From Mytilus edulis (lineage: Eukaryota), in contig NC_092352.1 in assembly GCF_963676685.1 (NCBI RefSeq), forward strand, positions 43,338,001 to 43,402,000: DNA of 64,000 nt, read 5' to 3'. Within the stretch, counting starts at the first letter, position 1. Each line of letters opens with the position of its first letter. The position numbers were made by a program, and so were the translations under genes. Below, piece by piece: positions 2,478 through 63,600 of the stretch. The notes under the pieces were generated by a model. That model was not told the DNA's origin and did no database searches. It saw nothing but the letters and a program-made list of their open reading frames with translations.

Positions 2478-23751
<21,274 letters not shown>

Positions 23752-29386: not shown

Positions 29387-31380
29387 AACCAGATGCTCCG
29401 CAGGGCGTAGCTTTATACGACCGCAGAGGTTGAACCCTGAACGGTTGGGGCAAGTATGGACACAACATTCAAGCTGGATTCAGCTCTAAATTTGGATTGT
29501 GATTAAATAGTTGACACAGCATAGGTTTCTGACACAGAATGAATGTGTTCTAATGAACTTAAAATTTTTGTTTCTCTTAGAGCAATTCACTATGCTGTTG
29601 AATATTAATCCTCTCAAAAAAATGTTTGAAGAAATTTTCTTTTTTATTTATGAAATTTCAAATGAGAAAAATTGAACCCAATTTTTTTAATCACATCCCC
29701 CTTTCCCTTATTCCAAAACTAATCTCAATTAAAATTTCTAATGGAGTTTGCAACAATAACTACTCATCTAAATACATCATAAAATATTAAGATGTAAAAA
29801 AACTGCTTGTTATCACTGAATGGTAAAGATTATTTTAATTTATCAGTTGGTAGTAAAAAGTGAATATAGATTGTATATTGTATATAACAAAGATTTAAGT
29901 TGATTCTGGACAAAGAAAGATAACTCCAATTAAAAAAAAATCTTGCTATTGCACAATATTTTGCAATTAGATATTTCTTGCTTACTATTCTGGACAAAGA
30001 AAGATAACTCTAATTAAAAAAAAATTTGATATTTCACAATATTGTGCAATTAGATATTTCTTGCCATTGCGCAATACTGTGCAATTGAAAAGACTTGCTA
30101 TTACACAATACTTAATATAATAATTTTAGATCCTGATTTGGACCAACTTGAAAACTGGGCCCATAATAAAAAATCTAAGTACATTTTTGGATTCAGCATA
30201 TCAAAGAACTTCAAGATTTCAATTTTTGTTAAAATCAGACTAAGTTTAATTTTGGACCCTTTGGACTTTAGTGTAGACCAATTTGAAAACAGGACCAAAA
30301 ATGAAGAATCTACATACACAGTTAGATTTGGAATATCAAAGAACCCCATTTATTCAATTTTTGATGAAATCAAACAAAGTTTAATTTTGGACCCCAATTT
30401 GGACCAACTTGAAAACTGGGCCAATAATCAAGAATCTAAGTACATTTTTAGATTCAGCATATCAAAGAACCTGACTGATTCATTTTTTGTCAAAATCAAA
30501 CTAAGTTTAATTTTGGACCCTTTGGACCTTAATGTAGACCAATTTGAAAACGGGACCAAAAGTTAAGAATCTACATACACAGTCATGACAGTTAGATTCA
30601 GCATATCAAAGAACCCCAATTATTCAATTTTGATGAAATCAAACAAAAGTTTAATTTTGGACCCTTTGGGCCCCTTATTATGTTGGGACCAAAACTCCCA
30701 AAATCAAACCCAACCTTTCTTTTATGATCATAAACCTTGTGTTTAAATTTCATAGATTTCTATTTACTTATACTAACGTTATGGTGCGAAAACCAAGAAA
30801 AATGCTTATTTGGGTCCCTTTTTGGCCCCTAATTCCTAAACTGTTGGGACCTAAACTCCCAAAATCAATACCAACCTTCCTTTTGTAGTCATTAACATTG
30901 TGTTTAAATTTCATTGATTTCTATTTACTTAAACTAATGTTATTGTGCGAAAACCAAGAATAATGCTTATTTGAGCCCTTTTTTGGCCCCTAATTCCTAA
31001 ACTGTTGAGACCAAAACTCCCAAAATCAATCCCAACCGTTCTTTTGTGGTCATAAACCTTGTGTCAAAATTTCATAGATTTCTATTAACTTAAACTAAAG
31101 TTATAGTGCGAAAACCAAGAAAATGCTTATTTGGGCCCTTTTTGGCCCCTAATTCCTAAAATGTTGGGACCAAAACTCCCAAAATCAATACCAACCTTCC
31201 TTTTGTGGTCATAAACCTTGTGTTAAAATTTCATAGATTTCCATTCACTTTTACTAAAGTTAGAGTGCGAAAACTAAAAGTATTCGGACGCCGGACGACG
31301 ACGACGACGACGACGACGCCGACGCCAACGTGATAGCAATATACGACGAAAATTTTTTCAAAATTTGCGGTCGTATAAAA
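29387..31380 (-). mobile_element. HINE-like element with (GAC)n tract and two internal tandem-repeat blocks
   Basis: IR TTTATACGACCGCA / TGCGGTCGTATAAA, terminal hairpin, (GAC)n at ~31295-31325, repeat blocks 30125-30670 and 30680-31275 (~160-bp unit). Confidence 0.85.
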
Positions 31381-44100: not shown

Positions 44101-47100
44101 TACTGAGGTATCTAAATATAAATACAACATTTTTTTTTTCTGAATACAATTCTCGTGTTTGAATAATTTTGTTATAGGAAATATTTTGACAGCATGGCAA
44201 AAATCATTAAATAGAAGATAAGGATGAATGTGTATGTTAGCCTCATTCTGAATTAGAAATGGTAGGTCTTTTTTTTTCTGCATGTCTGGTAATTCATGAA
44301 ATCTCTAGTTAACTTTTGGTTAGAATAATTGCAAATTATGGAGTTAGCTCCCCTATAATATTAATTTCTAGTGCATTTCAACCAAATTATATCTTAAAAT
44401 AACCGAAAAGGAAAAGGAAACAAAATTATATTCGTGCACCATTATATATTTTGAACTTTAATTAAGTTAACTTGAGCAGGTTTTTTTTGTCATGTTTTCA
44501 CCAATGTCTGATTCTAAGCCAGATTGGCACTTTTATAAACATAAATTTGTACTATAATCCCTACTCCAAAGTCTTCTCCACTTTTTCAAAGAATATATTT
44601 GTTCCTGAAAAACGAGTTGATAGTCATTAATAAAAAATAATCTGCAGCCCAAACTTAAAAAAAGCAAACATACTTTGGAGGTAAAGGAGGTTTATCTTTG
44701 CCTGAAGCAAAAGCAGAAACTGCAGTCAAATTTCGAGCCACATGCCTAAATGAGTTTCTGACTTCCTCCCTGGCATCACGTGCCAACTGTCTCATCTGTA
44801 CTTCTGCATCTTTGGCTCTCTTTTCTAGAGAAAAAGAAAGCATGGTATTGTCAGTAACATACATGTTATCATACATATACAACAATAAGATAACAAAAAT
44901 TAATGTCAAATGAAATATGATTTAACAGTTTTATGGTTAACAGTCCAATTTTTGATGTGTTAAAATATCATGTATTAAGAACAATCCTGACTGAGCCATC
45001 ATTTCAAATTTCCGTTTTTAATGGTGTTTTAAACCTATACCAGGTAATCATGATAATGGTGTCAATAGCAGGCTCTTGCTATAAATTGTTATATTTAAAA
45101 TAAAAGGTAGATATTCACTTAATCACAGGACTGTGCTGCAAGCTTTCTGTACATGCATACACAATACAAATGCAATGAAAGCTCATGCTTATTAAAGAAA
45201 TGAATCTTTTTGTAAATAATACTTCAGATATATAGATTACAAAATTCTTTGTTACATTTTATTAAATTTATTAGTCTGTGTACTGAAAATTAATGTACAC
45301 ATTTAGTAATAAAGTGTATCATGAATTCATTATTAATAGTGGGATACCAGATTTCAGGGATTTCATTGAAATAAGTGAATCACGAAATCTAATGTTCAAA
45401 GAAGATCAAATATTCTAAAATTAATATACAAACATTGACAAAATCATGACTTTAAAATTCAGGGCTTCCAAAAAACATTTGAGCCAGCCGGACATTTTAT
45501 ATCTGATCCCCATTTTAATCCCTTAAGACTTAGTCACAAAAGGCAATTATGGTAATCAAATGGCCATTCCAATGATAATGACATTAGATTAAAAAACGAT
45601 TTTAAACTTTACTTTGATATGAATTTGATGTTAGGATGTAAACTGTTAAATGGGCAGTGGTGCATCATTCAAAGTGTGCACATCAGTGTGCTCATATCTG
45701 CCATAGACTCTTTATTTGTGCAAAACGACATGTCAAAAACTTTATTTTCGTTTTTAAAATCATGTTTTTCTAAACCGGATGTTGCCTTGACAATGGTAAA
45801 ACATGGACCATAAACGGATACGTAAAATCCGTGTACGTTTACATAGCATGACTGAGTGAAGAAGCTCTTTCCACGTTATTTCTTCAACAAAATACTTGAA
45901 ATGAACGTTTAGATACAGGTATCAATGATAATTTTAGCATTTTGAAGAAATAAAGGATGCATAATTAAATTTCCCACCTTTGCACATGTGCACACATGTT
46001 CTAGTTCATTCAACGTAGTTCTGACGATTTTCATTTAAACCTTTTAAAATTTCTCATCAAATCATGTAGACAAACTAATTTCTTATAATTTTAATCTTTT
46101 GGACTAAATCAATGAGCTACAAACCGCTGAAATGTAAGAAAATAATTGTGAATAGACCGATCAATTTGTACGATGTCCGGTACTGAACATAGTTTACCTG
46201 TCACCTGAACAGGTAGATATCACCTGTCCAACAACTAATTAGCCTTGATTAAAATTAGAAAGTATTGAAGTAGGGGTTGTTTTGATAGTAATTAATCATC
46301 ATGTCACTTTTATGACCGGAAATGTGTGGATGTTAAAGGCAAAAGGTTGGGTCAAAAAGATCGTGAATTATGTTAAAATGACAGAAAAAGCCTTGAAAAC
46401 TAAAATGTATATGACCGTTTCATGCTTTGCCCAGCAGGACTTTTACCGGACATTACACAAATGTCCGGAATATATGACCGTTTTGGAAGCCCTGCTTTAA
46501 ATATCCCTACATCCAAGAAAATTTGTACCTATGGAAGTAAATGAATCCACTGTATATGCTTTTATTATTTTATAGTGTGTCTTCCTATGTTGTGATGTTT
46601 TACTATTGTTTCAGGTTATGATGAAGGTTGTTTCCTAAAACACTAAAACCTGCTGCATTTGATTGCATCTGTCCTAAGTCAGGAACCTGATGTTCAGTGG
46701 TTGTAATTTATTGAAGAAGTTCATAAGTGTTTCTCTTTTTTTAATACATAAATTTCACCTTTGGTTTTCCTGTATGAATGGTTTTAAACTTGTCTTTTTT
46801 GTGGCCCTTTATAGCTTGCTGTTCGATGTGTGTGTTAGCTATAACAGTTTACTTTTACAAATTTTGATTGAATGAAGAGTCGTCTCATTGGCACTCATTC
46901 TATTTACATATAACCAACCTTGTTCTTTCCAAATGGGTTCTACTTCTTTACTCGTTTCTAATGCTTGTTTGTCTATAGAATCTCTCATGTGCTTCCATTT
47001 CATATAAAGTTCACTACTTCTACGTTTTTTATTAGTCTCTACTCTCTCCATTGATTTACGTCTTTCCACAGCAAACTTTTTCTAAAATATTACAAATGTA

Positions 47101-50100: not shown

Positions 50101-53100
50101 ATAGAAAAAATGCAAATCCTTCTTGTTCAAAAAGCAATGCTGCATTCCTTTCATATGCAGTAACTAGGAATAATCTAGATCTATTCCAGCTTTGTCTATA
50201 GTAGCTTAGAACTTTCCATTTTGCAAAATTAATTATAAAGCTCTTAAACCATGGGTTTTGGGTGCTAATTTTTCAAAGGGAGATGATCTAAACATGTGCT
50301 TTTTATCTCCCTTGATCAACACGTGCTAATAGCAAAGCCTTAGTGGTCAATCTCGCATGAAAATTGGTTTTGACAACATTCAGTATGGTTCACAGTATGT
50401 GTTAATGAAAAATAAACAAGTCCTGCATGCTACCTTATTTTTTACACATCGTCATGCAGTATTTTCATATCAATAAAAGACTGGAAACACTTGTGTCAGC
50501 AAGTTTTAAAATGGAATATTTGACTGCTTATTTTTTGGCAATGTAGGTTAAAAAAGTGGCAAATTCAGATGCCTAAGATGGTAACAACTTTTCAGAAATT
50601 CTACACAATAAATTACCTGGAAATATTTGTATGAAAGGGAGACAAACAAATATTTGTATAAAAGGGAGATAAACCTGATTACATAAGGGAAGTGTGGATT
50701 CAGAAAGACGACAGGATCACTATATGTGCCAATACATTATTACAATATGTGAGTACCGGTATAAATTTCATTACACACAGAACATGTTTTAGTTGTTTTA
50801 GAAATTTATTCATGAGGTCATTTTAGTTCTATCAATAAATGATTTATTTTGTACAATTTCGTTTGAGAATGGTATAAAATTTAAAATTGTGTCAGTTTTA
50901 GAAATTAACCCTTTCGCCGACGAGTCCCGGTTTACCGGGATTCACGCTTCAGACAGCTGACGATGAGTCCCGTTTTACCGGGATCGGAATACCTCTTTTA
51001 TGTTTCCCGCTCAAACAGTGCAAACATGGGTTATCTTTCTTTGATGAGTAACCCGGATAAAAGTGTAAACATGGCGGTTCCGTTTGTTGAAAACCGTGTC
51101 AAAATCAGAGGAAATTTACGGAATTTACGAGAATTTGAAATGAGGGAACATTTTTTTTGAAAGAATATGGAAAAATTGAAGCCAAACTAGTATAATTTTT
51201 TTACATAAAATGTCGTTTTATGTACAAAACAGTTGGAATGGACATCGATCAGTGTGAGGAATTTGTACAGCCTCATAAAATTTTTCAAAATTTTGCCGTT
51301 TTGGGTTAAAAAATTACGATTTGGGGTGAAAGAGTCGAATTTTGAGAATTTCACCTAGATAATGCCGAAAATTTGAAAATTTGAATATTTTATGAAGAAA
51401 AAAATGTCAAAACATGAACAAAACTGTGAACATGGTGTTAGTGAATAAAAGAAATACACAAATAACTATAAACAAGTTTTTATTGACATTTATTATGAAT
51501 ATCTCCCTCTTGAGTAATAGTAGCCAGGGAAGCCATCGTCTCAGAGTAGCTTCTGTCTGGGCAGCAATCGGTGAAAGGGTTAAGCATTCATGATTGTATG
51601 TCAGTGAAAATATGAGATGAAACTAAATATGTGACTTTTCTTATCAATTTTATAATGTCTCACTTACATTTATTTCTAATCAATTTATTCTCCTGATATG
51701 GACAGTGATTACCCACCATTCAACAGATATTGAAATATTTAATTATTATGGGTAAGGGAAAAAAACATTTTTATTTTTTTCGAGGTTGACACAAGAGTTT
51801 CAGTCATACATACAGTTACACAATACCTGAATAATTTGTTGACAATCATTTACTCCGTTAAGCTGTGGAACATTCAGACACAATGATAAAACAACAATAT
51901 ATAAACTTACACTTAAATGTTTTGAACAAATTTCTGAAATTATGATTTAACTAAAATATTCAATAATTCACCACCAAACTGTATATCATCTTTCTTTAAT
52001 GAATCAGTTATAAATAATATCACCAAAAAATCAAAAAAAATCTAAAATTTCAGGGTGCAGAAAAATGGAGATAGAGACATGCCCTTATGAAAATGATGGA
52101 CCGACAAGTAGTACATCTGATAAGTGACATGTCCTTGTAAACATGACAGACAGACATATAGTACATTCCATAAGTGACATGTAAAATATGCCTTTGCGAA
52201 CATGAAAACCAACAAATAGTGCATCTGATTAGTAATATTTAAAAAAATAAAAAATTATAAACCCCATACATTTAAATGTTTAAATTTTTGAATTTTCAAC
52301 CTACTGCAAAGTGGGACAATATTCTATCCATTCAGATTTCTAATAAGTCTTCCTTTCAGCAAAAGAAAGTTAGTGCCTTGCATTATAAATTTTAAATCTC
52401 CTCCATTGACACCTAAAGGGGAGATAAAAACCTCAAAGACACAAATAAGAAAGATACACCCCTCCCCCCTTTTTGGCAAGAAATTACTCCTATTTTCACA
52501 CTCTTTTATCATTTGTTTTTTGTATAAAGTATTTTCTTAAGTTCACAAAAGGTTAGAAAGAATAGTATGCTATCTGGCTATTGAACACAACCAAGACAAA
52601 ACAATATGTATTTACACAACTATGTATATATACATTAAAACTTACTCTTAAGTCATTGACTCTTAATGTGACTTCTTCTTGAGATCGCATTTTTTCTTCC
52701 TCTATCCTCTTTGCTGCCTCTCGAGCCTCTTTAAGTGAGGCATATAATGCAGCTTCCTCTTCTTTTCTCCTGAAAAATACAAACACATTAACTCACTATA
52801 TAAAATGTAGTAATAGTCCTTATCATCATGATCATGTCATATAAGTTTTTTTTTAATTTTTCTGAGACTTTTTCTGCCTCCAACAATATTCTGTATTATT
52901 CCTAACTCAAATTGTTAAAGAAAACCAGAAAATTTTCTTGTCTAGGTAATTATTTTTATAACCACTGAATTTAAAAAGAATTCATATTTGTTTTTACACA
53001 AATATATATTTTTTTTATGTAAAAGGTCTTTTTTTTATAATTTGCAAAACTGGTGAGAAGAATGTTCTATGAAATGAAAATAATCTTATATCTGAAATAC

Positions 53101-56100
53101 ATTTATAAATCATTAGATTCAGTAATCAATATTTACAATTTGAGATATTAAATATAATACAGTTATTTTGATACATTCACCATAACCACTTTACACATAA
53201 AGGAGTAAAAATGAAAGTGGCCACATCCGTGTTCATCCTCAACCTTTATATATGTTATGTATTATCATCAAATACAACTTACATTTCAATATTATGAATG
53301 AACACGAATGCGGCCACTTTCATTTAAGACGGAAACCGTCTGAAATTTAACTAAAATGCTAAAATTGTGAAGATTTCAGTAATTAAGCATGACTTAATGA
53401 TAGTACTACCCGATATATGTGCATTGTATTGTCAAAAACAGCCCATATTTGTGTAGCAGAAGCATTCTGCTTTCCAATAAATAGCTAAAAGATTACATTT
53501 TCACAATTTTGTACAACTGCTATATTTTGGGGCCAAAAAGGGTTCTTACTGAACCTACTCCATTAATACTGAAGATGTTTCATTTCATTTGTGCTGATTA
53601 ATAAAGGTTTTCATTGACAAATTGCTCTTAAATATTATGATGAAACAAAATTGAAATTCTAATATGACGTTCTTCTTTAGCTTTGGTATGGGTTTTAATA
53701 TGGGTAGGCATTATATTTGTCAACATTTAATACCTCGCTAGCACTCGGCATTAAAATATAGACAAATATAATGCCTATATAGCTACCCATGTTAAAATGA
53801 GCATAGAGCATGGCATGAAAGAATTTATTCTTAAATACAACAAGTGAAACTGCGAGCTACTGCTCACTGATGATACCCCAGCAGCAAGTGGATAATATTA
53901 ATAGTGTAAAAATATGCAAGTGTTCGGTAAACAGGAAGTTGTCGAGTGATGAATCTGAAAACGCATCACACGGTATAGCTGATTTATATAAATCCTGAAA
54001 CCAAATTTCAGAAATCCTTGTATTATAGTTCCTGAGAAAAATGTGACGAAAATCTTCACCTTGGCTATCATGTGTAAAATCATACAAGTGTCGGTAAACA
54101 GGAAGTTGTCAAGTGATCAATCTGAAAACACATCACACTGTATAGCTGACTTAGATAAACCCTGAAACCAAATTTCAGAAATCCTTGTATTGTAGTTCCT
54201 GAGAAAAATGCAACGAAAAATATTCATGGGACGGACGGACGGACTGACTGACGGACTGACGTAAGGACAGACAGAGGTAACACAGTATACCCCCCCTTTT
54301 TTAAAGCGGGGGTATAATTACTAGACTGTCACATATACTTCATAATATTTGTTTATATCCCTTTATTTTTAATACATCTTCAATCTATCAGATTTAAGAA
54401 ATCATTTTAGACAAACCACCGACCAATATTTCATTTCATGCTTTATGCCTAATTTATACACTGTTATAAACTAACTTGAGTTCTGCTTCTCGTTCAGCCT
54501 TCTCTCTTTCAAATCTTTTTTGTTCTTCTTCCATTTTCCTTTGAAATTCTTGTTCTTCACTTCTCCTGATTTACAGAGTAAAATCGAATTAACAAATTTA
54601 TTGTGAATGAAATTCATATGACATCCTGTTAGTATGATAGCCTCATTAGGAACCAATTTTTTCATTGACACGTACTACATGTGCTTGGGTATAAGTATGT
54701 GTTATATTTTGGTATCTATATGTGCATATACATGTAGGTACCAAATATTCTGTGTTAGCTACTTTACTGACCTATATTTTTTTCTGTGTGAGCTACTTTA
54801 CTGACCTATATTATTTCTGTGTGAGCTACTTTACTGACCTTGTTTCTTCTATATGAGCTACTTTACTGACTTTGTTTTTCTGTGTGAGCTAATTTACTGA
54901 CTTTGTTTTTTCTGTGTGACCTACTTTACAAACATTATTTTTCTGTATGAGCTACTAAACTGACTTAGTTTTCTCTATGTGAGCTATTTTACTGACTTTG
55001 TTTTCTCTATGTGAGCTACTTTACTGACTGTTTTCTCTATGTGAGCTAATTTACTGAATTTGTTTTCTCTATGTGAACTACTTTACTGACTTTGTTTTCT
55101 CTATGTGAGCTACTTTACTGACTTTGTTTTTTCTATGTGAGCTACTTTACTGGCCTATATTTTTTCTGTGTGAGCTACTTTACTGACTTTGTTTCTTCTA
55201 TGTGAGCTACTTAATTGACTTTGTTTTCTCTATGTGAGCTACTTTACTGACTTTGTTTTCTCTATGTGAGCTACTTTACTGACTTTGTTTTGTCTATGTG
55301 AGCTACTTTACTAACTTTTGTTTTGTCTATGTGAGCTACTTAACTGACTTTGTTTTCTCTATGTGAGCTACTTTACTGACTTTGTTTTCTCTATGTGAGC
55401 TTATTTACTGACTTTGTTTTCTACATGTGAGCTAATTTACTGACTTTGTTTTCTCTATGTGAGCTACTTTACTGACTTTGTTTTCTCTATGTGAGGTACT
55501 TTACTGACTTTGTTTTCTCTATGTGAACTACTTTACTGACTTTGTTTTCTCTATGTGAGCTACTTTACTGAATTTGATTTCTCTATGTGAGCTACTTTAC
55601 TGACTTTGTTTTCTCTATGTGAGCTACTTTACTGACCTTTGTTTTGTCTATGTGAGCTAATTTACTGACTTTGTTTCTTCTATGTGAGCTACTTTACTGA
55701 CTTTGTTTTCTCTATGTGAGCTACTTTACTGACTTTATTTTCTCTTTGTGAGTTATTTTACTGACTTTGTTTCGTCTATGTGAGCTACTTTACTGATTTT
55801 GTTTTGTCTATATGAGCTACTTTACTGACTTTGTTTTCTCTATGTGAGCTTATTTACTGACTTTGTTTTCTACATGTGAGCTAATTTACTGACTTTGTTT
55901 TCTCTATGTGAGCTACTTTACTGACTTTGTTTTCTCTATGTGAGCTACTTTACTGACTTTTGTTTTCTCTTTGTGAGTTATTTAACTGACTTTGTTTCGT
56001 CTATGTGAGCTACTTAACTGATTTTGTTTTGTCTATATGAGCTACTTTACTGACTTTGTTTTGTCTATGTGAGCTAATTTACTGACTTTGTTTTCTCTAA

Positions 56101-59100
56101 GTGAGCTATTTTACTGACTTTGTTTTCTCTATGTGAGATATTTTACTGACTTTGTTTTTTCTGTGTGACCTACTTTACAAACATTATTTTTCTGTATGAG
56201 CTACTAAACTGACTTTGTTTTCTCTATGTGAGCTATTTTACTGACTTTGTTTTCTCTATGTGAGCTACTTTACTGACTGTTTTCTCTATGTGAGCTACTT
56301 TACTGAATTTGTTTTCTCTATGTGAGCTACTTTACTGACTTTGTTTTCTCTATGTGAGCTACTTTACTGACCTTTGTTTTGTCTATGTGAGCTACTTTAC
56401 TGACTTTGTTTTTTCTATGTGAGCTACTTTACTGGCCTATATTATTTCTGTGTGAGCTACTTTACTGACTTTGTTTCTTCTATGTGAGCTACTTAATTGA
56501 CTTTGTTTTCTCTATGTGAGCTACTTTACTGACTTTGTTTTGTCTATTTGAGCTACTTTACTAACTTTTGTTTTGTCTATGTGAGCTACTTAACTGAATT
56601 TGTTTTCTCTATGTGAGCTACTTTACTGACTTTGTTTTCTCTATGTGAGCTTATTTGCTGACTTTGTTTTCTACATGTGAGCTAATTTACTGACTTTGTT
56701 TTCTCTATGTGAGCTACTTTACTGACTTTGTTTTCTCTATGTGAGGTACTTTACTGACTTTGTTTTCTCTATGTGAACTACTTTACTGACTTTGTTTTCT
56801 CTATGTGAGCTACTTTACTGAATTTGTTTTCTCTATGTGAGCTACTTTACTGACTTTGTTTTCTCTATGTGAGCTACTTTACTGACCTTTGTTTTGTCTA
56901 TGTGAGCTACTTTACTGACTTTATAAATATAATTAACACTTATTGTATGAATTCGGGATCTGAAATTTGAAAAAAATAAGTAAATCAAAAGATGCATGTG
57001 TAGGACTTAGGTGGAAGGGTAAACCCTGTTCTTATTGTTTTTACATGTAAACAGCACTTATGTGACGAGACTTGTGATTAAATAATAACATGTGTTTATC
57101 CACGGAGGCTTCCATTGTGTTGTGTGGTTGTAGCAGAACAAGACTATAGAGAGATTCCGAGTATCCAAATGTTTACATTATGAATACACAAGACTCCGCC
57201 TACAGGAATGTGAAATGTACAACTATGCCACACCCACTATTTACGTTAAAAAAAGTTAATACTGAGAGGAGAACTCACGATTAACACAAATAGTGTTACA
57301 TATAATTTTGCCTGGCGCAGTACAAAACTAAATAAAGAGAAAAGGTACATTTAAAATAAAAATATAAACAAGCTAACAAAAAAAGTAACTAAAGGTGAAA
57401 AAAAAAGAAAAAGTAGCATCATTTTTATTACAATGTTCCAATAAGTCTTGTGAGCGATAATTATTCGATTTTCAAAACGATCTCTATACTAGACGCGTAA
57501 TGTTTACGATCTTTTCTTTACGAGTTGGACGAAAGGTGGATCTTTCAAGTACACAAGTATGAATTTTCTTTTTTCCTCATTGGACATCTTGCTTCTCTCT
57601 GCCAGGAGTTCACCGCGACGAGCTGCAAGTGAGGGTGGGAGGTCCGGTACCACACTGTATCCGCACCCCCTAGGCAGTTTTGTGGCAGCACTAAGGATAT
57701 CATCCCTATCTATCAAGTTTGATAGCCTAAGGATTATATTGCGTTTCTTTTCAGGACCATTCGGCAATCTATGTACTGCTGTAAATAGCATACCTTTCAC
57801 CTGCGGAGCAGTAAACCCAAGCCCCTTTTTGTCATTATGCAACCATATACGGACGATGTTTTCAGTGACCTTAGGGGATTCACCGACTTTCCCCTCAATC
57901 CCACGGATAACCAAATTCCATTTTCTTCCCCACACCTCCAATTTCAGACGTTCATTCGCCTCCTCGGCAATGAGTGACTCCAAGTTGGGGATTTTAGAAT
58001 TGTGAATATCATGGAGCTCACCATTGGCAAACTCGGCCTGGTTTTCAAGAACTTTAACCCTCTCGTCGATCTGTTCTTGTTTTTCTTTTAGTTTCTCCAC
58101 TTCAGTATTTATATAAATATGTAGTTTCTGGAAACATTTCCCAATGTCGGCAAAATCTTTGCACTCATAATCAGCCATTGTTATTGTTTAAACAGGTAGA
58201 GGCGGGAATCGCCGATTAAAGACTGGTTAGTTAAGAAGATAATTGAATGAAAGTCACCTCGTTCAGTGTAAAAAGGAAATCCTATATGAATATTACGCTC
58301 TGTGTATTACTCTGTTTAATTGAAATGTTAAATATAAGGCAGATACAAACAATTTACCAGGAGCAATTTTTCTACACGTCTCACAACATGGCTGTCACCG
58401 GAAGTCTCTAACTTTTGTTTTGTCTATGTGAGCTACTTAACTGACTTTGTTTTCTCTATGTGAGCTACTTTACTGACTTTGTTTTCTCTATGTGAGCTTA
58501 TTTACTGACTTTGTTTTCTACATGTGAGCTAATTTACTGACTTTGTTTTCTCTATGTGAGCTACTTTACTGACTTTGTTTTCTCTATGTGAGGTACTTTA
58601 CTGACTTTGTTTTCTCTATGTGAGCTTATTTACTGACTTTGTTTTCTACATGTGAGCTAATTTACTGACTTTGTTTTCTCTATGTGAGCTACTTTACTGA
58701 CTTTGTTTTCTCTATGTGAGCTACTTTACTGACTTTTGTTTTCTCTTTGTGAGTTATTTAACTGACTTTGTTTCGTCTATGTGAGCTACTTAACTGATTT
58801 TGTTTTGTCTATATGAGCTACTTTACTGACTTTGTTTTGTCTATGTGAGCTAATTTACTGACTTTGTTTTCTCTAAGTGAGCTATTTTACTGACTTTGTT
58901 TTCTCTATGTGAGATATTTTACTGACTTTGTTTTTTCTGTGTGACCTACTTTACAAACATTATTTTTCTGTATGAGCTACTAAACTGACTTTGTTTTCTC
59001 TATGTGAGCTATTTTACTGACTTTGTTTTCTCTATGTGAGCTACTTTACTGACTGTTTTCTCTATGTGAGCTACTTTACTGAATTTGTTTTCTCTATGTG

Positions 59101-61813
59101 AGCTACTTTACTGACTTTGTTTTCTCTATGTGAGCTACTTTACTGACCTTTGTTTTGTCTATGTGAGCTACTTTACTGACTTTGCTTTTTCTATGTGAGC
59201 TACTTTACTGGCCTATATTATTTCTGTGTGAGCTACTTTACTGACTTTGTTTCTTCTATGTGAGCTACTTAATTGACTTTGTTTTCTCTATGTGAGCTAC
59301 TTTACTGACTTTGTTTTGTCTATTTGAGCTACTTTACTAACTTTTGTTTTGTCTATGTGAGCTACTTAACTGAATTTGTTTTCTCTATGTGAGCTACTTT
59401 ACTGACTTTGTTTTCTCTATGTGAGCTTATTTGCTGACTTTGTTTTCTACATGTGAGCTAATTTACTGACTTTGTTTTCTCTATGTGAGCTACTTTACTG
59501 ACTTTGTTTTCTCTATGTGAGGTACTTTACTGACTTTGTTTTCTCTATGTGAACTACTTTACTGACTTTGTTTTCTCTATGTGAGCTACTTTACTGACTT
59601 TGTTTTCTCTATGTGAGCTACTTTACTGACTTTGTTTTCTCTATGTGAGCTACTTTACTGACCTTTGTTTTGTCTATGTGAGCTAATTTACTGACTTTGT
59701 TTCTTCTATGTGAGCTACTTTACTGACTTTGTTTTCTCTATGTGAGCTACTTTACTGACTTTATTTTCTCTTTGTGAGTTATTTTACTGACTTTGTTTCG
59801 TCTATGTGAGCTACTTTACTGATTTTGTTTTGTCTATATGAGCTACTTTACTGACTTTGTTTTCTCTATGTGAGCTTATTTACTGACTTTGTTTTCTACA
59901 TGTGAGCTAATTTACTGACTTTGTTTTCTCTATGTGAGCTACTTTACTGACTTTGTTTTCTCTATGTGAGCTACTTTACTGACTTTTGTTTTCTCTTTGT
60001 GAGTTATTTAACTGACTTTGTTTCGTCTATGTGAGCTACTTAACTGATTTTGTTTTGTCTATATGAGCTACTTTACTGACTTTGTTTTGTCTATGTGAGC
60101 TAATTTACTGACTTTGTTTTCTCTATGTGAGCTATTTTACTGACTTTGTTTTCTCTATGTGAGATATTTTACTGACTTTGTTTTCTCTTTGTGAGTTACT
60201 TAACTGACTTTGTTTTCTCTATGTGACCTACTTAACTGACCTTTGTTTTTTTCTGTGTGACCTACTTTACTGACCTTTGTTTTCTGTGCAAGTTACTTAA
60301 CTGATCTTTATTAATTTTTGTGTGTGAGCTACTTAACTGACCTTTGTTTTTTTCTGTGTGACCTATTTTACTGAACTTTATTTTTTCTGTGTGACCTACT
60401 TTATTGACCTTTATTTCTGTGTGACCTATTTACTGACCTTAGTTTCTTTCTGTGTGACCTACTTTACTGACCTTTGTCTTTCTAATTCAATATCTGCCTG
60501 TGTATCAGCATTTCTCTGAGCTTCATCATCCAATATTTGTTGTATTGTTCTATCATTTCTGTGGTCTCCCATTACCCATACCCATTCTTTTCCATCCTTT
60601 CCATGCATGAAGCATACATTTTTCGTACCTGAAATTGCAAAATAATCTGAAACTGAGCAGATCTAGGATTGAAGGAAAGAAGTGTGTCATTGTCTGTAAT
60701 GGTAAAAATATCAGACAACCTAACCAGGTCATATTTTTATTGATGATTTTATGCTAGAAAATGATAATACAGAATATCAAGCAATTTTCTATGTGCAAGA
60801 GCCACAACTACCAAAGAATTCACTCATTTGGAAATAAATTCAAATCTGATCTGTATGATATAATCATAAACCAAATACTGTAAACCGACTTATTCTTATG
60901 GATACTTTTTTTTTATGTTTAGCTTTCCTTTTGAAGCTATCATGGCATCCATTTAGTTTCTTGATTTTTAAATCGACTTGATGTATTTAAATCCACATGC
61001 CCTACATTTTATATTTGCTTAATATTTCTACACACAAAAGTTGCAGTATCTAATCAATTCATTCAGAAATTATAGAAAATAGTGTGGTAAGTTGAGCACA
61101 CAGATGACAGACAGTGCAAACCTAAAATACCCTACAGCTTCTCCAGAAGTGTACTAATAACAATCTCTCAAATAATGAAACCATAGTACATGGGTTTTTC
61201 TGGATATTTTAGGGAAAAAATATCTTTGAGTGTTCTGATTAAAATATTTCCTGTTTCTGCTATATTTCATACATGTATGTCCTTTTTTTTAATTCAAGGT
61301 TTTTATCTTACAGCTTTATTTTGTCCCCTGCTGTGAGTTTTTAAAAATTTATTTATTTGAATTGGATCGGCAAGCCCTGGATAAACTTGCTTCCTGAATC
61401 TGGTATTGCATAAGTGTACATTTGTCAAAGTTGTTTTTGTCAGTCAGATATGATTCTAATCGGTTTTTACAAATAACTTGTTGTGGATTTTCAACATAAA
61501 AGTTTGTGGTAGAACAAAATGAGCATCGCTGTCATGAATTATGTAGTTTTGAGATAAATCAAAATTTAGAAAATTTAGGGGGGTATTTCCATTGGGAATG
61601 GGTCCAAATACCAGACCCTGTGGAATACCAGATAAATCCATGAAGTATAGCATAGTATTTCATTGGACTGTTGCCAAATATACAATAAAATACACCTTAC
61701 GTCTCCCACTTTCCTAAAACAAATATCAAACCTGGTTTTGATGGTTTTGTTGGTTTCCTTTTCTCATCTGCCTCTCTCTTATCTTCTTCCTGTTTCCATC
61801 TTCTCACTTGTTC
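35013..61813 (-). CDS. SH2D4: SH2 domain-containing protein 4 (SH2D4A/B-like) gene, multi-exon; first coding exon beyond window end
   Basis: Exons 61732-61813, 60472-60628, 54476-54565, 52646-52769, 46919-47081, 44674-44824, (42862-42873), 37373-37524, 36215-36435 and 35013-35132 join in frame. EQVRRWK, KEWVWVMGDH, IIAWFHDEE...AG and the C-terminal SH2 (WFHGII...YLVRVSE...CKHFLV) match the SH2D4 architecture. Confidence 0.92.
35198..35423. repeat. SINE-like repeat copy inserted into a TACTGTAAATTC-type MITE
   Basis: Core matches 38834-39093; host MITE ends at ~35162 and ~35575. Confidence 0.8.
36215..36435 (-). CDS. SH2D4: SH2D4 SH2-domain exon
   Basis: [47 protein letters not shown]...LILYHV; tttag| and |gtaagt. 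Confidence 0.96.
37373..37524 (-). CDS. SH2D4: SH2D4 exon (NSEKIKAHKRKSRPPRPQNRDAIIAWFHDEE...AEWFH)
   Basis: cttgcag| acceptor, |gtaaaa donor, phase 2-1; contains the start of the SH2 domain. Confidence 0.92.
38038..38164. mobile_element. Short GC-rich MITE, 5-bp TSD GAACT
   Basis: GAACT|CAGGCGCAGATCCAG...CTGGATCCGCCCCTG|GAACT. Confidence 0.85.
38453..38760 (-). mobile_element. ~300-bp HINE-like element
   Basis: AACAAGAATGTGTCC...GACGGAC tract...ATGCCCCTCTAC/GTAGGTGGGGCAT hairpin. Confidence 0.85.
38834..39093. repeat. Abundant SINE-like interspersed repeat (other copies ~2710-2875, 5449-5590, 35198-35423, 39210-39300, 46570-46900, 47238-47425)
   Basis: Shared core GGCCTTTTATAGCTGAC...GAAGGCCGTACGGTGACCTATAG...TTGTCTCATTGGCAATCATACC in both orientations. 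Confidence 0.85.
39609..39913 (-). mobile_element. ~300-bp HINE-like element
   Basis: Close copy of 38453-38760. Confidence 0.85.
40786..42168. mobile_element. Non-autonomous TIR transposon, 5-bp TSD ACTAG
   Basis: ACTAG|CAGGTGCGTAGCTA...TAGCTATGCCACTG|ACTAG; CGGGCGTACAC near both ends; contains a decayed HINE fragment and poly-G. Confidence 0.8.
41670..41694 (+). repeat. Poly-G run (~25 nt)
   Basis: Direct reading. Confidence 0.9.
42862..42873 (-). CDS. Candidate SH2D4 12-nt micro-exon (EDNG)
   Basis: tttattag|AGAAGACAACGG|gtaagt; phase 2-2, frame-preserving. Confidence 0.5.
44674..44824 (-). CDS. SH2D4: SH2D4 exon (EKRAKDAEVQMRQLARDAREE...KPPLPPK)
   Basis: ctctag| acceptor, |gtatgt donor, phase 1-2; PPLPPK is an SH3-ligand-like motif. 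Confidence 0.9.
45460..46494. mobile_element. hAT-like non-autonomous element nested in an older MITE
   Basis: Perfect TIR CAGGGCTTCCAAAA/TTTTGGAAGCCCTG; CTTTAAA on both flanks. Confidence 0.8.
46919..47081 (-). CDS. SH2D4: SH2D4 exon (KKFAVERRKSMERVE...PIWKEQ)
   Basis: ttttag| acceptor, AAG|gttggt donor, phase 0-1. Confidence 0.88.
47528..47648. repeat. Long hairpin within a ~330-bp palindromic MITE-like element
   Basis: TTGAATGC...TTTGTAACTTCAT..GTAAAAGCGTTGACC / GGTCAACGCTTTTAC..ATGAAGTTACAAA...GCATTCAA. Confidence 0.75.
48796..48959. mobile_element. Short GC-rich MITE
   Basis: CAGAGGCGGAT...ATCCGCCACTG termini; TSD not clear. Confidence 0.75.
50909..51579. mobile_element. piggyBac-type MITE
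   Basis: TTAA|CCCTTTCGCCGA...TCGGTGAAAGGG|TTAA; subterminal direct repeat GAGTCCCG.TTTACCGGGAT x2. Confidence 0.9.
52646..52769 (-). CDS. SH2D4: SH2D4 coiled-coil exon (RKEEEAALYASLKEAREAAK...VNDLR)
   Basis: ttttcag| acceptor, |gtaagt donor, phase 2-0. Confidence 0.9.
53200..53562. mobile_element. Degenerate Kolobok-like MITE
   Basis: GGAGTA...TACTCC termini; internal IR AATGAAAGTGGCC/GGCCACTTTCATT. Confidence 0.5.
53839..54318 (-). mobile_element. HINE/pearl-like element with two internal tandem units and ACGG/ACTG microsatellite
   Basis: Terminal hairpin, ATACCCC/GGGGTAT IR, duplicated core at 53910-54220, GGAC tract at 54228-54270. Confidence 0.8.
54476..54565 (-). CDS. SH2D4: SH2D4 coiled-coil exon (RSEEQEFQRKMEEEQKRFEREKAEREAEL)
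   Basis: atcag| acceptor, |gttagt donor, 90 nt, phase 2-2. Confidence 0.85.
54748..56922. repeat. 32-bp minisatellite array, left arm (~68 units)
   Basis: Consensus CTTTACTGACTTTGTTTTCTCTATGTGAGCTA repeated in tandem. Confidence 0.98.
57504..58178 (-). CDS. LINE-1 ORF1p-like protein (coiled coil + RRM + CTD; Transposase_22-like), 224 aa
   Basis: Intronless and intact. N-terminal heptad-rich segment, then RKWNLVIRGIEG (cf. RRxNLRIxGIPE), AVHRL (cf. RAHR), RNIILRL (cf. RPIIVRF) and VVPDLPPSLAARR (cf. DLSxExxxxR). Confidence 0.82.
   Translation of the reverse strand: MADYECKDFADIGKCFQKLHIYINTEVEKLKEKQEQIDERVKVLENQAEFANGELHDIHNSKIPNLESLIAEEANERLKLEVWGRKWNLVIRGIEGKVGESPKVTENIVRIWLHNDKKGLGFTAPQVKGMLFTAVHRLPNGPEKKRNIILRLSNLIDRDDILSAATKLPRGCGYSVVPDLPPSLAARRGELLAERSKMSNEEKRKFILVYLKDPPFVQLVKKRS
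58385..58405. promoter_or_regulatory. YY1-like (CAACATGGC) and ETS (CCGGAAGT) motifs at the element 5' end, candidate internal promoter
   Basis: caacatggctgtcaccggaagt lies at the element terminus. Confidence 0.5.
58408..60480. repeat. 32-bp minisatellite array, right arm (~65 units), running into the SH2D4 exon donor
   Basis: Same unit as the left arm; the terminal unit overlaps the exon 60472 boundary. Confidence 0.98.
60472..60628 (-). CDS. SH2D4: SH2D4 exon (GTKNVCFMHGKDGKEWVWVMGDH...IELERQ)
   Basis: tttcag| acceptor, AAG|gtcagt donor, phase 1-2; conserved WVWVMG motif. Confidence 0.93.
61732..61813 (-). CDS. SH2D4: SH2D4 exon (EQVRRWKQEEDKREADEKRKPTKPSKP)
   Basis: tttacag| acceptor, CAG|gtttga donor, phase 0-1. 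Confidence 0.9.
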
Positions 61814-63600
61814 CTGTAAAGAATACATATAATTTAATTCAGAAAAAAATTTGCCTTCTAATTGAGGCTAAATAAAACCAAACATTATAAGTAAATGACA
61901 GTCATTACAATAAAATAGGTAATCCATTAATACAAGGATCTCTGAGTTTCTTAAATTATCTCTTTAGTTTAAAAACTAGCAGTTATCATTTAACATGTTC
62001 AAACTAAAGAGAGGCTGCAAATACCATCAAAACAATCATATATTCAAATGTAAGGCAGTCATTGGCAGTGTTCTCCCCAGAAATTTTGGATAGCATCACA
62101 TTTGGCGTAAAAAAAATAAACTGTATTTTTTTCAATGTCATTTATCGTGTCGTGGCGATGCTCTATTTCCTTTACGTTATATATGTTATTGTTTGATGAA
62201 TAACATATTCTATTCCATCCTATTCTGAGTGTTTATATTGTTGAATTCTTTACTGAGAATACAATTAAACTATTACCATAATAACAGTATTTTCAGTTTA
62301 TGTTTACTATATTCATTTATAGTTACTTAATTATTTTTCACCTCTTGGGCCAAATAAAAATATATATGTTCAAGTTACCCTACCTACCCAACTAAATGAA
62401 TGAATGGGTTATCATTATTATAGAGCAAACTGTATAGATACAATTACACTAAATATCTAGGGAAAAAATGGTTCTTATCAAAAGAAAAAAAAGGGAAGAG
62501 AAAGTCTCATATGGCAATAAAATTTAAATTCAAAAACGTTTTCTTTATCATGTCTATGAAATATATTAGTTGATGTAACTCAATGAATTAGTCCCAGTTG
62601 TTTCTTTTTATCAAAATGATATATATTTTTAACAAAGTTATCTAACAAATAGTCTGTTAATGCGTGGTTTTCTCTTTAGGTTTTATTTTTTCTGTCTACT
62701 GTGCCATTTGTGCATCTGCAGCTATTATCATAAAATGCGGATTTTTGTTATATGGGCGTTTTTCAATAAAAACGTACTTTCTTGTCCCAGCCACTTTAAA
62801 AAAAATGTGTTTGATCTTTGCAAGTAATTTTTTGTGCAGTCAGTACATTGAATTAGATATAACATTTTTAAGTAAAGAAACAGTTTATTTTTTAGAGGGA
62901 TTGATAAGATATTGATTCCTGAATGGTCCAAAACAACCACAATGGCATGTCCCTAGACCGCCTGTTCAACATTCATACTCTCAAATATCGTAAAAAAATG
63001 TAGAAATAAATATTAATTTTACTTAATATAAGTTCTTTAATAATTCAAAAGTATGTTTAGAGCCAACATATTTTAATAAACAGCTTTTAACATAGGATTT
63101 TTTATTTTTAGAAGGTGTGTCCCTAACACAATGTCCACTACGAAACAAAGTCATTAAAACTTGCTTATAAACAGTTTTATAAAATCAATGTAATTTTTTG
63201 TTTGCAAGAGATATAAACATTAGGGTCTTACAAAAGAAATGATGCTTTTATAACGGCAATTAAACTGTTGGTAAGAAAAATTGAGCACATCAAATGGACC
63301 AGAGTGATACCGTATTTTTGTAAATGTCCACTACGAAACGGGTCAAATCTCCTTCAGTAACTGGTTTTAAAATTATGAAAAAAATATCAGTGTACAGCTT
63401 AATAACGCTTTGATGAATACAGTCAGTCTTGTTACTATTGCAATATTGGGGTTGTGAGAAAAAAATAAAACATGTGAATACGTCCCCTACGAAACGGTCC
63501 CCTACGAAACAAGTTTGGGAGAAAAAACGTTTCGTAGTGGACACTACCACTACCATGCAGTCTTTTTTTACTCTTTTTTCAATTATATTCGTGCAAAGCA

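Follow-up and report, generated by a model that had tools for sequence, protein, structure and literature searches.

A junction-spanning minisatellite in an SH2D4 intron of Mytilus edulis reiterates the donor site of its host exon

In our study, an intron of the SH2D4 gene of the mussel Mytilus edulis was found to contain a tandem array in which the 5' splice site of the preceding exon is repeated. We consider it very probable that this array is a locus-specific minisatellite spanning the exon/intron junction, that the first donor is the one used in the mRNA seen, and that the other 131 copies are silent DNA which drifts neutrally. The window, which is the whole stretch of 64,000 nucleotides analysed, belongs to contig NC_092352.1, and the positions given below without a contig name are those of the window.

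Results

The peptide encoded by the exon at the head of the array was 100% identical to a Mytilus edulis protein named SH2 domain-containing protein 4B-like, and relatives were found in four other Mytilus species. The downstream SH2D4 exons were placed on the - strand by tblastn, and the host gene and strand named in the original prediction were thereby borne out. The first coding exon (residues 1–32) was looked for in a further 10 kb past the window without success, and the array intron is therefore left unnumbered. The intron (60471–54566) was 5,906 nucleotides long, about 4.2 kb of which consisted of repeat units. The array head was located 12 nucleotides inside the SH2D4 exon, and the donor was repeated through the 5.9-kb intron. 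The first unit contained 12 exon bases and 20 intron bases and the period was 32 bp. An AGAA word was present at either array end.

Two 32-bp arms, of 64.3 and 67.8 copies, were detected by TRF (Table 1), and anchoring on the core gave 132 units. These fell into 48 unit types, the most frequent of which, the modal unit, accounted for 34 units. Shuffled sequences led to an expectation of 0.02 matches to the 18-mer core in the window, where 130 were present. One array of about 130 copies had been described earlier; the copy number stands, whereas the span was found to be split by a 1,485-bp retrotransposon fragment. Tandem repeats were common in the window (34 TRF rows), and other intronic or intergenic ones with periods of 126–499 bp were located at 53904–54219, 30141–31274, and 9497–10993. 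High-copy dispersed repeats were present in the introns upstream of the exon (61430–61650 and 62023–62600), with a depth in the thousands in the DNA-like runs.

Table 1. Positions of the features of the SH2D4 array and its surroundings in the window.
Feature	Position	Strand	Evidence
SH2D4 coding exon, 157 nt, GTKNVCF...ELERQ, phase 2 end; repeat unit 1 begins with its last 12 nt	60472..60628	-	P0001 match
True 5' splice site AAG/GTCAGTAA with its GT beginning at 60471; used donor	60464..60474	-	Spliced contigs
Second donor-like GT in unit 1, AAA/GTAGGT, G at 60462	60457..60465	-	20/20 protein records without its use
5' minisatellite arm, 64 units; first 8 diverged, nearest to the exon-junction sequence	58414..60483	-	TRF, anchoring
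5' fragment (1,485 bp) of a 6.9-kb element, putatively an L1-type non-LTR retrotransposon, on the gene's strand; 3' 5.4 kb missing	56923..58407	-	
First ORF of the element, 227 aa from stop to stop, 226/227 identical to two full-length copies	57504..58187	-	
Candidate 73-nt pseudo-exon: acceptor-like CAG within the L1 fragment, paired with an intact AAG/GTCAGTAA at 56886	56887..56959	-	Predicted
3' minisatellite arm, 68 units; G/GT kept in the last 3; AGAA end	54749..56922	-	TRF, anchoring
Next SH2D4 exon, 90 nt, RSEEQEF...EAELK; donor CAA/GTTAGT (54475) without -1 G, used	54476..54565	-	tblastn, spliced contigs

The unit was searched for elsewhere in the 1.37-Gb genome, as had been suggested. 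All of the exact 19-mer matches (47/47) and all of the 25-mer matches with up to 3 mismatches (117/117) were found in the SH2D4 array, by which a dispersed satellite family is ruled out. As judged from these matches, the array appears to be a minisatellite born in place and not a dispersed satellite. An assembly artefact is unlikely, since the repeat units were present at both array edges in the DNA-like runs X15, X16, and X17, and one X16 contig on the repeat unit had a depth of 78.6 vs 3.1 on the flank. These short-read contigs collapse the array and show units at its edges only; X16 and X17 belong to one study, which may be the source of the window, and X15 belongs to another study and contained two units only.

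The units were found to be arranged in a higher-order repeat of about 40 units, in which rare unit types recur at lags of 39, 40, and 79. Within the array, a block of 1,285 bp was repeated at 98.4%. The unit order to the left of the L1 insert resembled the last block and that to the right of it resembled the first block. The unit order suggests four blocks, followed by an insertion and then by one later deletion. Three internal units (59212, 56436, and 55154) contained TAG/GCCAGT, the GC version of the terminal TAG/GTCAGT units, and so edge-like units appear to have been carried inward by block duplication. Neither the higher-order repeat nor the L1-type fragment was part of the original prediction.

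By its sequence matches, the insert appears to derive from a young L1-type retrotransposon, of which it represents the 5' end. It had 34 matches in the genome, the best of which showed 98–99% identity over the full insert length and continued beyond the break. Five copies that were fetched aligned over up to 6.9 kb at 97–99%; a poly(A) tail was present in four of these five and a clear target-site duplication in one (L034). Copies of the family were located at G000:C13:30150405, C9:7356817, C13:54853125, C14:53756633, and C3:65585345, and the flanks of the copies inspected showed no sign of target specificity. One full-length relative contained an uninterrupted ORF2 of 1262 aa with PF03372, PF00078, and PF13966 over the cut-off. 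The ORF2 domains, an N-terminal endonuclease, a reverse transcriptase, and a zf-RVT, are missing from the window fragment, and its poly(A) tail and target-site duplication have been lost. The 227-aa ORF, in which no Pfam family was found over the cut-off, was called ORF1 by its position. The family is young and its ORF1–ORF2 spacer is unusually long (about 1.6 kb). The full-length relatives resemble L1/Tx1-type elements in their two ORFs, their ORF2 with endonuclease, reverse transcriptase and zf-RVT, their poly(A) tail, and their target-site duplication, and by this architecture the insert is a putative member of the L1/Tx1 clade. Truncation of non-LTR elements usually removes the 5' end. The window fragment shows the reverse, as its 5' end is kept and its 3' end is missing, which indicates a later deletion.

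Eight of 24 runs were examined for the donor in use, of which five were RNA-like (three with cover) and three were DNA-like. The RNA label is a guess, as none of them is on record as RNA; for X2, X14, and X18 it is backed by exon-only cover and spliced ends, whereas the RNA-like runs X1 and X10 had no cover on the exon and were uninformative. X2, X14, and X18 each contained one exon-only contig on the acceptor exon, with the same loose end behind 54567, and this end maps to 60474–60503. This interval closes the upstream exon, which makes the donor of the first unit the one in use. The first donor was joined to the 54565 acceptor in 3/3 RNA-like runs with cover, which came from three studies, and the real donor is therefore the first unit of the array, as had been expected; a different donor for the array exon is ruled out by the same contigs. 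An origin of the array from the donor of its own host exon, which was the central claim of the original prediction, is supported, because the array is locus-specific, its first unit is the used donor, and AGAA is present at both ends.

The RNA evidence consists of assembled contigs with a depth of 3–5, from which rare and NMD-degraded forms are dropped. Within this limit, no cryptic junctions from array donors were found in the contigs of the three RNA-like runs with cover. The plain junction was present in 20/20 protein records, with no altered junction at the array exon, and splicing at the second or third unit was seen neither in these records nor in the contigs. Two differences were present among the SH2D4 protein records (51826–51880 and 44673–44825), namely a micro-exon of 12 residues (LNGVNDCQQIIQ) and a stretch of 23 residues ahead of the PPK donor. 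SH2D4 is thus alternatively spliced elsewhere and not at the array junction.

Reading through the first donor gives R-S-V-K-stop, and every unit copy gives a stop, which agrees with the earlier claim that use of any downstream copy would create a premature stop; the exception is the second donor-like GT of unit 1, at 60462, splicing at which would extend the peptide in frame by Ser-Val-Lys. Early in-frame stops are usual in SH2D4, the stop being reached after 4 codons in the array intron, the shortest of 9, and after 6–30 codons in the other 8. A special design of the in-frame stop was ruled out, as 9/9 introns checked stop within 4–30 codons.

The contrast between edge and internal units was confirmed, the G/GT being present in 6/8 first units and 3/3 last units vs 5/121 internal units. 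The GT was intact in 115/132 units and GTCAGT in 103/132, and the exact donor 11-mer had 8 further copies in the array, the nearest of which was 34 nucleotides downstream (unit 2). Donors were scored with a crude U1-pairing energy model, for which the U1 end was taken from the M. edulis genome and which was not trained on mussel donors. By this model the true donor scored -8.1 kcal/mol and the modal AA/GTCAGT site -3.1 kcal/mol; crude as the model is, the modal site was stronger than two of the 9 real donors of SH2D4 (-1.7 and -1.8). The -1.7 donor is the AA/GT at 54475, in the next intron, and is in use according to the spliced contigs. Among the 1,004 GT sites in the gene's downstream 19 kb, 11 had a U1-model score at least equal to that of the true donor and 161 at least equal to that of the modal site. 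The U1 snRNA genes were found to be arrayed in tandem, with one repeat about every 1,353 bp (G000:C8:42702771-42728200, C1204, and C1405).

The modal unit differed from unit 1 at 4–5 places. With 4–6 changes in a 32-mer, the probability of at least one change in the 9-nt donor motif is 0.75–0.89. The two AG/GT words of the founder (-1 G and +14 G) were both lost in the modal unit, which accounts for 2 of the 4–5 changes. The loss of both words is in the direction that would be favoured by selection, yet it represents two events only. As the internal units descend from the modal unit and from higher-order duplications, the -1 G was lost once or a few times and not 110 times.

Discussion

Donor-spanning repeats are a class already in print, with human F7, IFI6, CBS, and LMNB2 as examples (PMC1557585). 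The SH2D4 array has the features of a donor-spanning minisatellite, namely a head-to-tail unit within 10–100 bp, a first monomer spanning the boundary, a reiterated donor, a used first donor, and a single locus. Neither the SH2D4 locus nor donor-spanning arrays in Mytilus were found in the literature searched, which left most subscription papers outside. According to the same paper, the identical downstream donors in intron 7 of human F7 are functional and yet unused, only the most upstream one being used; even stronger downstream sites do not compete, the second donor is activated when the first is mutated, and oriented scanning of the F7 donors was shown in mammalian cells (PMC1557585). The SH2D4 array is similar to the 37-bp VNTR of F7 in its boundary-spanning first monomer, its reiterated donor, and its use of the donor lying furthest upstream. 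In F7, a mammalian gene, there are 5–9 copies, which share one donor sequence and include 4 exon bases, whereas SH2D4 has 132 copies and 12 exon bases in a mollusc; in contrast to F7, the SH2D4 copies are mostly without the -1 G, follow a higher-order period, and contain an L1-type fragment.

Intron 2 of human 6-16 (IFI6) and intron 13 of CBS contain 15–25 pseudo-sites, of which the two nearest are used (PMC1557585). They share a donor-spanning minisatellite with SH2D4, but no SH2D4 pseudo-site was seen in use in the contigs, which drop rare forms. In LAMIN B2 (a 100-bp unit, 10–15 copies) and PDGF intron 4 (an 81-bp unit, 16–18 copies), use is reported for the authentic donor alone (PMC1557585). 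The exon/intron junction is reiterated there as in SH2D4, with longer units and far fewer copies. By analogy with F7, the dominance of the first donor by position may be carried over to the mussel.

The original prediction went further and proposed an array selected to tune SH2D4 through donor competition or sequestration of U1, its internal units being weakened by selection, a reading to which we give almost no credence. The -1 G contrast between edge and internal units is real, and tandem repeats linked to splicing variation are reported in humans (PMC10078293), but a single event or a few, through amplification of the modal unit, suffice to give the contrast. There is no support for selection against mis-splicing, because most units keep their GT, the eight exact 11-mers include the nearest copy, and a weaker AA/GT donor is used in the next intron. 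Intact donors at proximal positions, where human cases report use, are the opposite of what purging would predict, the strong copies being retained where they would be most harmful. A retrotransposon fragment and block rearrangements were tolerated in the array, and tuning through competing donors and NMD found no sign in the contigs of the three runs, from which rare forms are dropped, or in any of the 20 protein records. A milder possibility is that the proximal donors are leaky, 60437, 60274, or the in-frame 60462 being used at a low level with a small share of transcripts going to NMD, in which case SH2D4 output would vary slightly between array alleles with different edges. The 60437 site has the 11-mer of the true donor, 34 nucleotides downstream of it, the exon would have a normal length of 191 nucleotides, and a TAG lies four codons past the donor. 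Since human IFI6 and CBS also splice at their two nearest pseudo-sites (PMC1557585), some use of 60437 is plausible. However, no such forms were found in the contigs of the three runs, which weigh little here as rare forms are dropped, or in the 20 protein records, and there is no sign of regulation or selection; we regard leaky use as improbable.

Considerably less probable is a two-part poison exon in the insertion alleles. The deletion that cut the L1-type element would have put a pyrimidine-rich CAG 73 nucleotides upstream of an intact donor copy, and the 3' splice site of the fragment at 56959 together with the satellite donor at 56886 would form a 73-nt pseudo-exon. Its inclusion would cause a frameshift and a stop early in the next exon, by which insertion alleles would lose SH2D4 mRNA to NMD. 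The CAG at 56960 has 17/22 pyrimidines vs 13–14 at three true acceptors, the donor at 56886 is identical to the true donor over 11 nucleotides, and only 5/410 YAG sites in the intron reach 16 pyrimidines, all 5 of them in the L1 fragment. The acceptor-like site was, however, chosen by eye and after the fact, and the pseudo-exon was absent from the RNA contigs of three runs, which may come from animals without the insertion. In addition, pseudo-exons that fit the consensus far outnumber used exons (PMC1557585).

Under the preferred reading, in which the first donor is used and the other copies drift silently, the array would have begun when slippage duplicated 32 nucleotides between an AGAA word lying 12 nucleotides inside the exon and another lying 20 nucleotides into the intron. 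The AGAA at both ends fits such a first duplication between short direct repeats, which is the general model of minisatellite birth (PMC2820488). A search with the junction pattern for the orthologous intron gave 0 matches in metagenome contigs; as no orthologous intron was seen, we only infer a single-copy ancestor of the array. Slippage and unequal exchange would next have enlarged the array; during this growth a variant without the -1 G would have become the modal unit, with the edges staying closer to the founder, and blocks of about 40 units would then have been duplicated. A full-length L1-type element would later have been inserted into the array, and a deletion would have taken the 3' 5.4 kb of the element and probably some units too. 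The most upstream donor would win by position, either through exon definition or through oriented scanning as in human F7, and so the copies would need no purging. Rare use of a copy would run into a TAG four codons later, and NMD would be likely to remove such transcripts.

The SH2D4 array is one more, large, example of a class known in human genes since the 1980s–90s and carries little weight as it stands. It extends first-donor dominance to a mollusc gene with over 100 GT-bearing copies, and the steps of its history, from array growth and block duplication to the L1 insertion and the deletion, can still be read from it. If it is true that the proximal copies or the pseudo-exon are used, the array alleles would be natural splice and expression variants.
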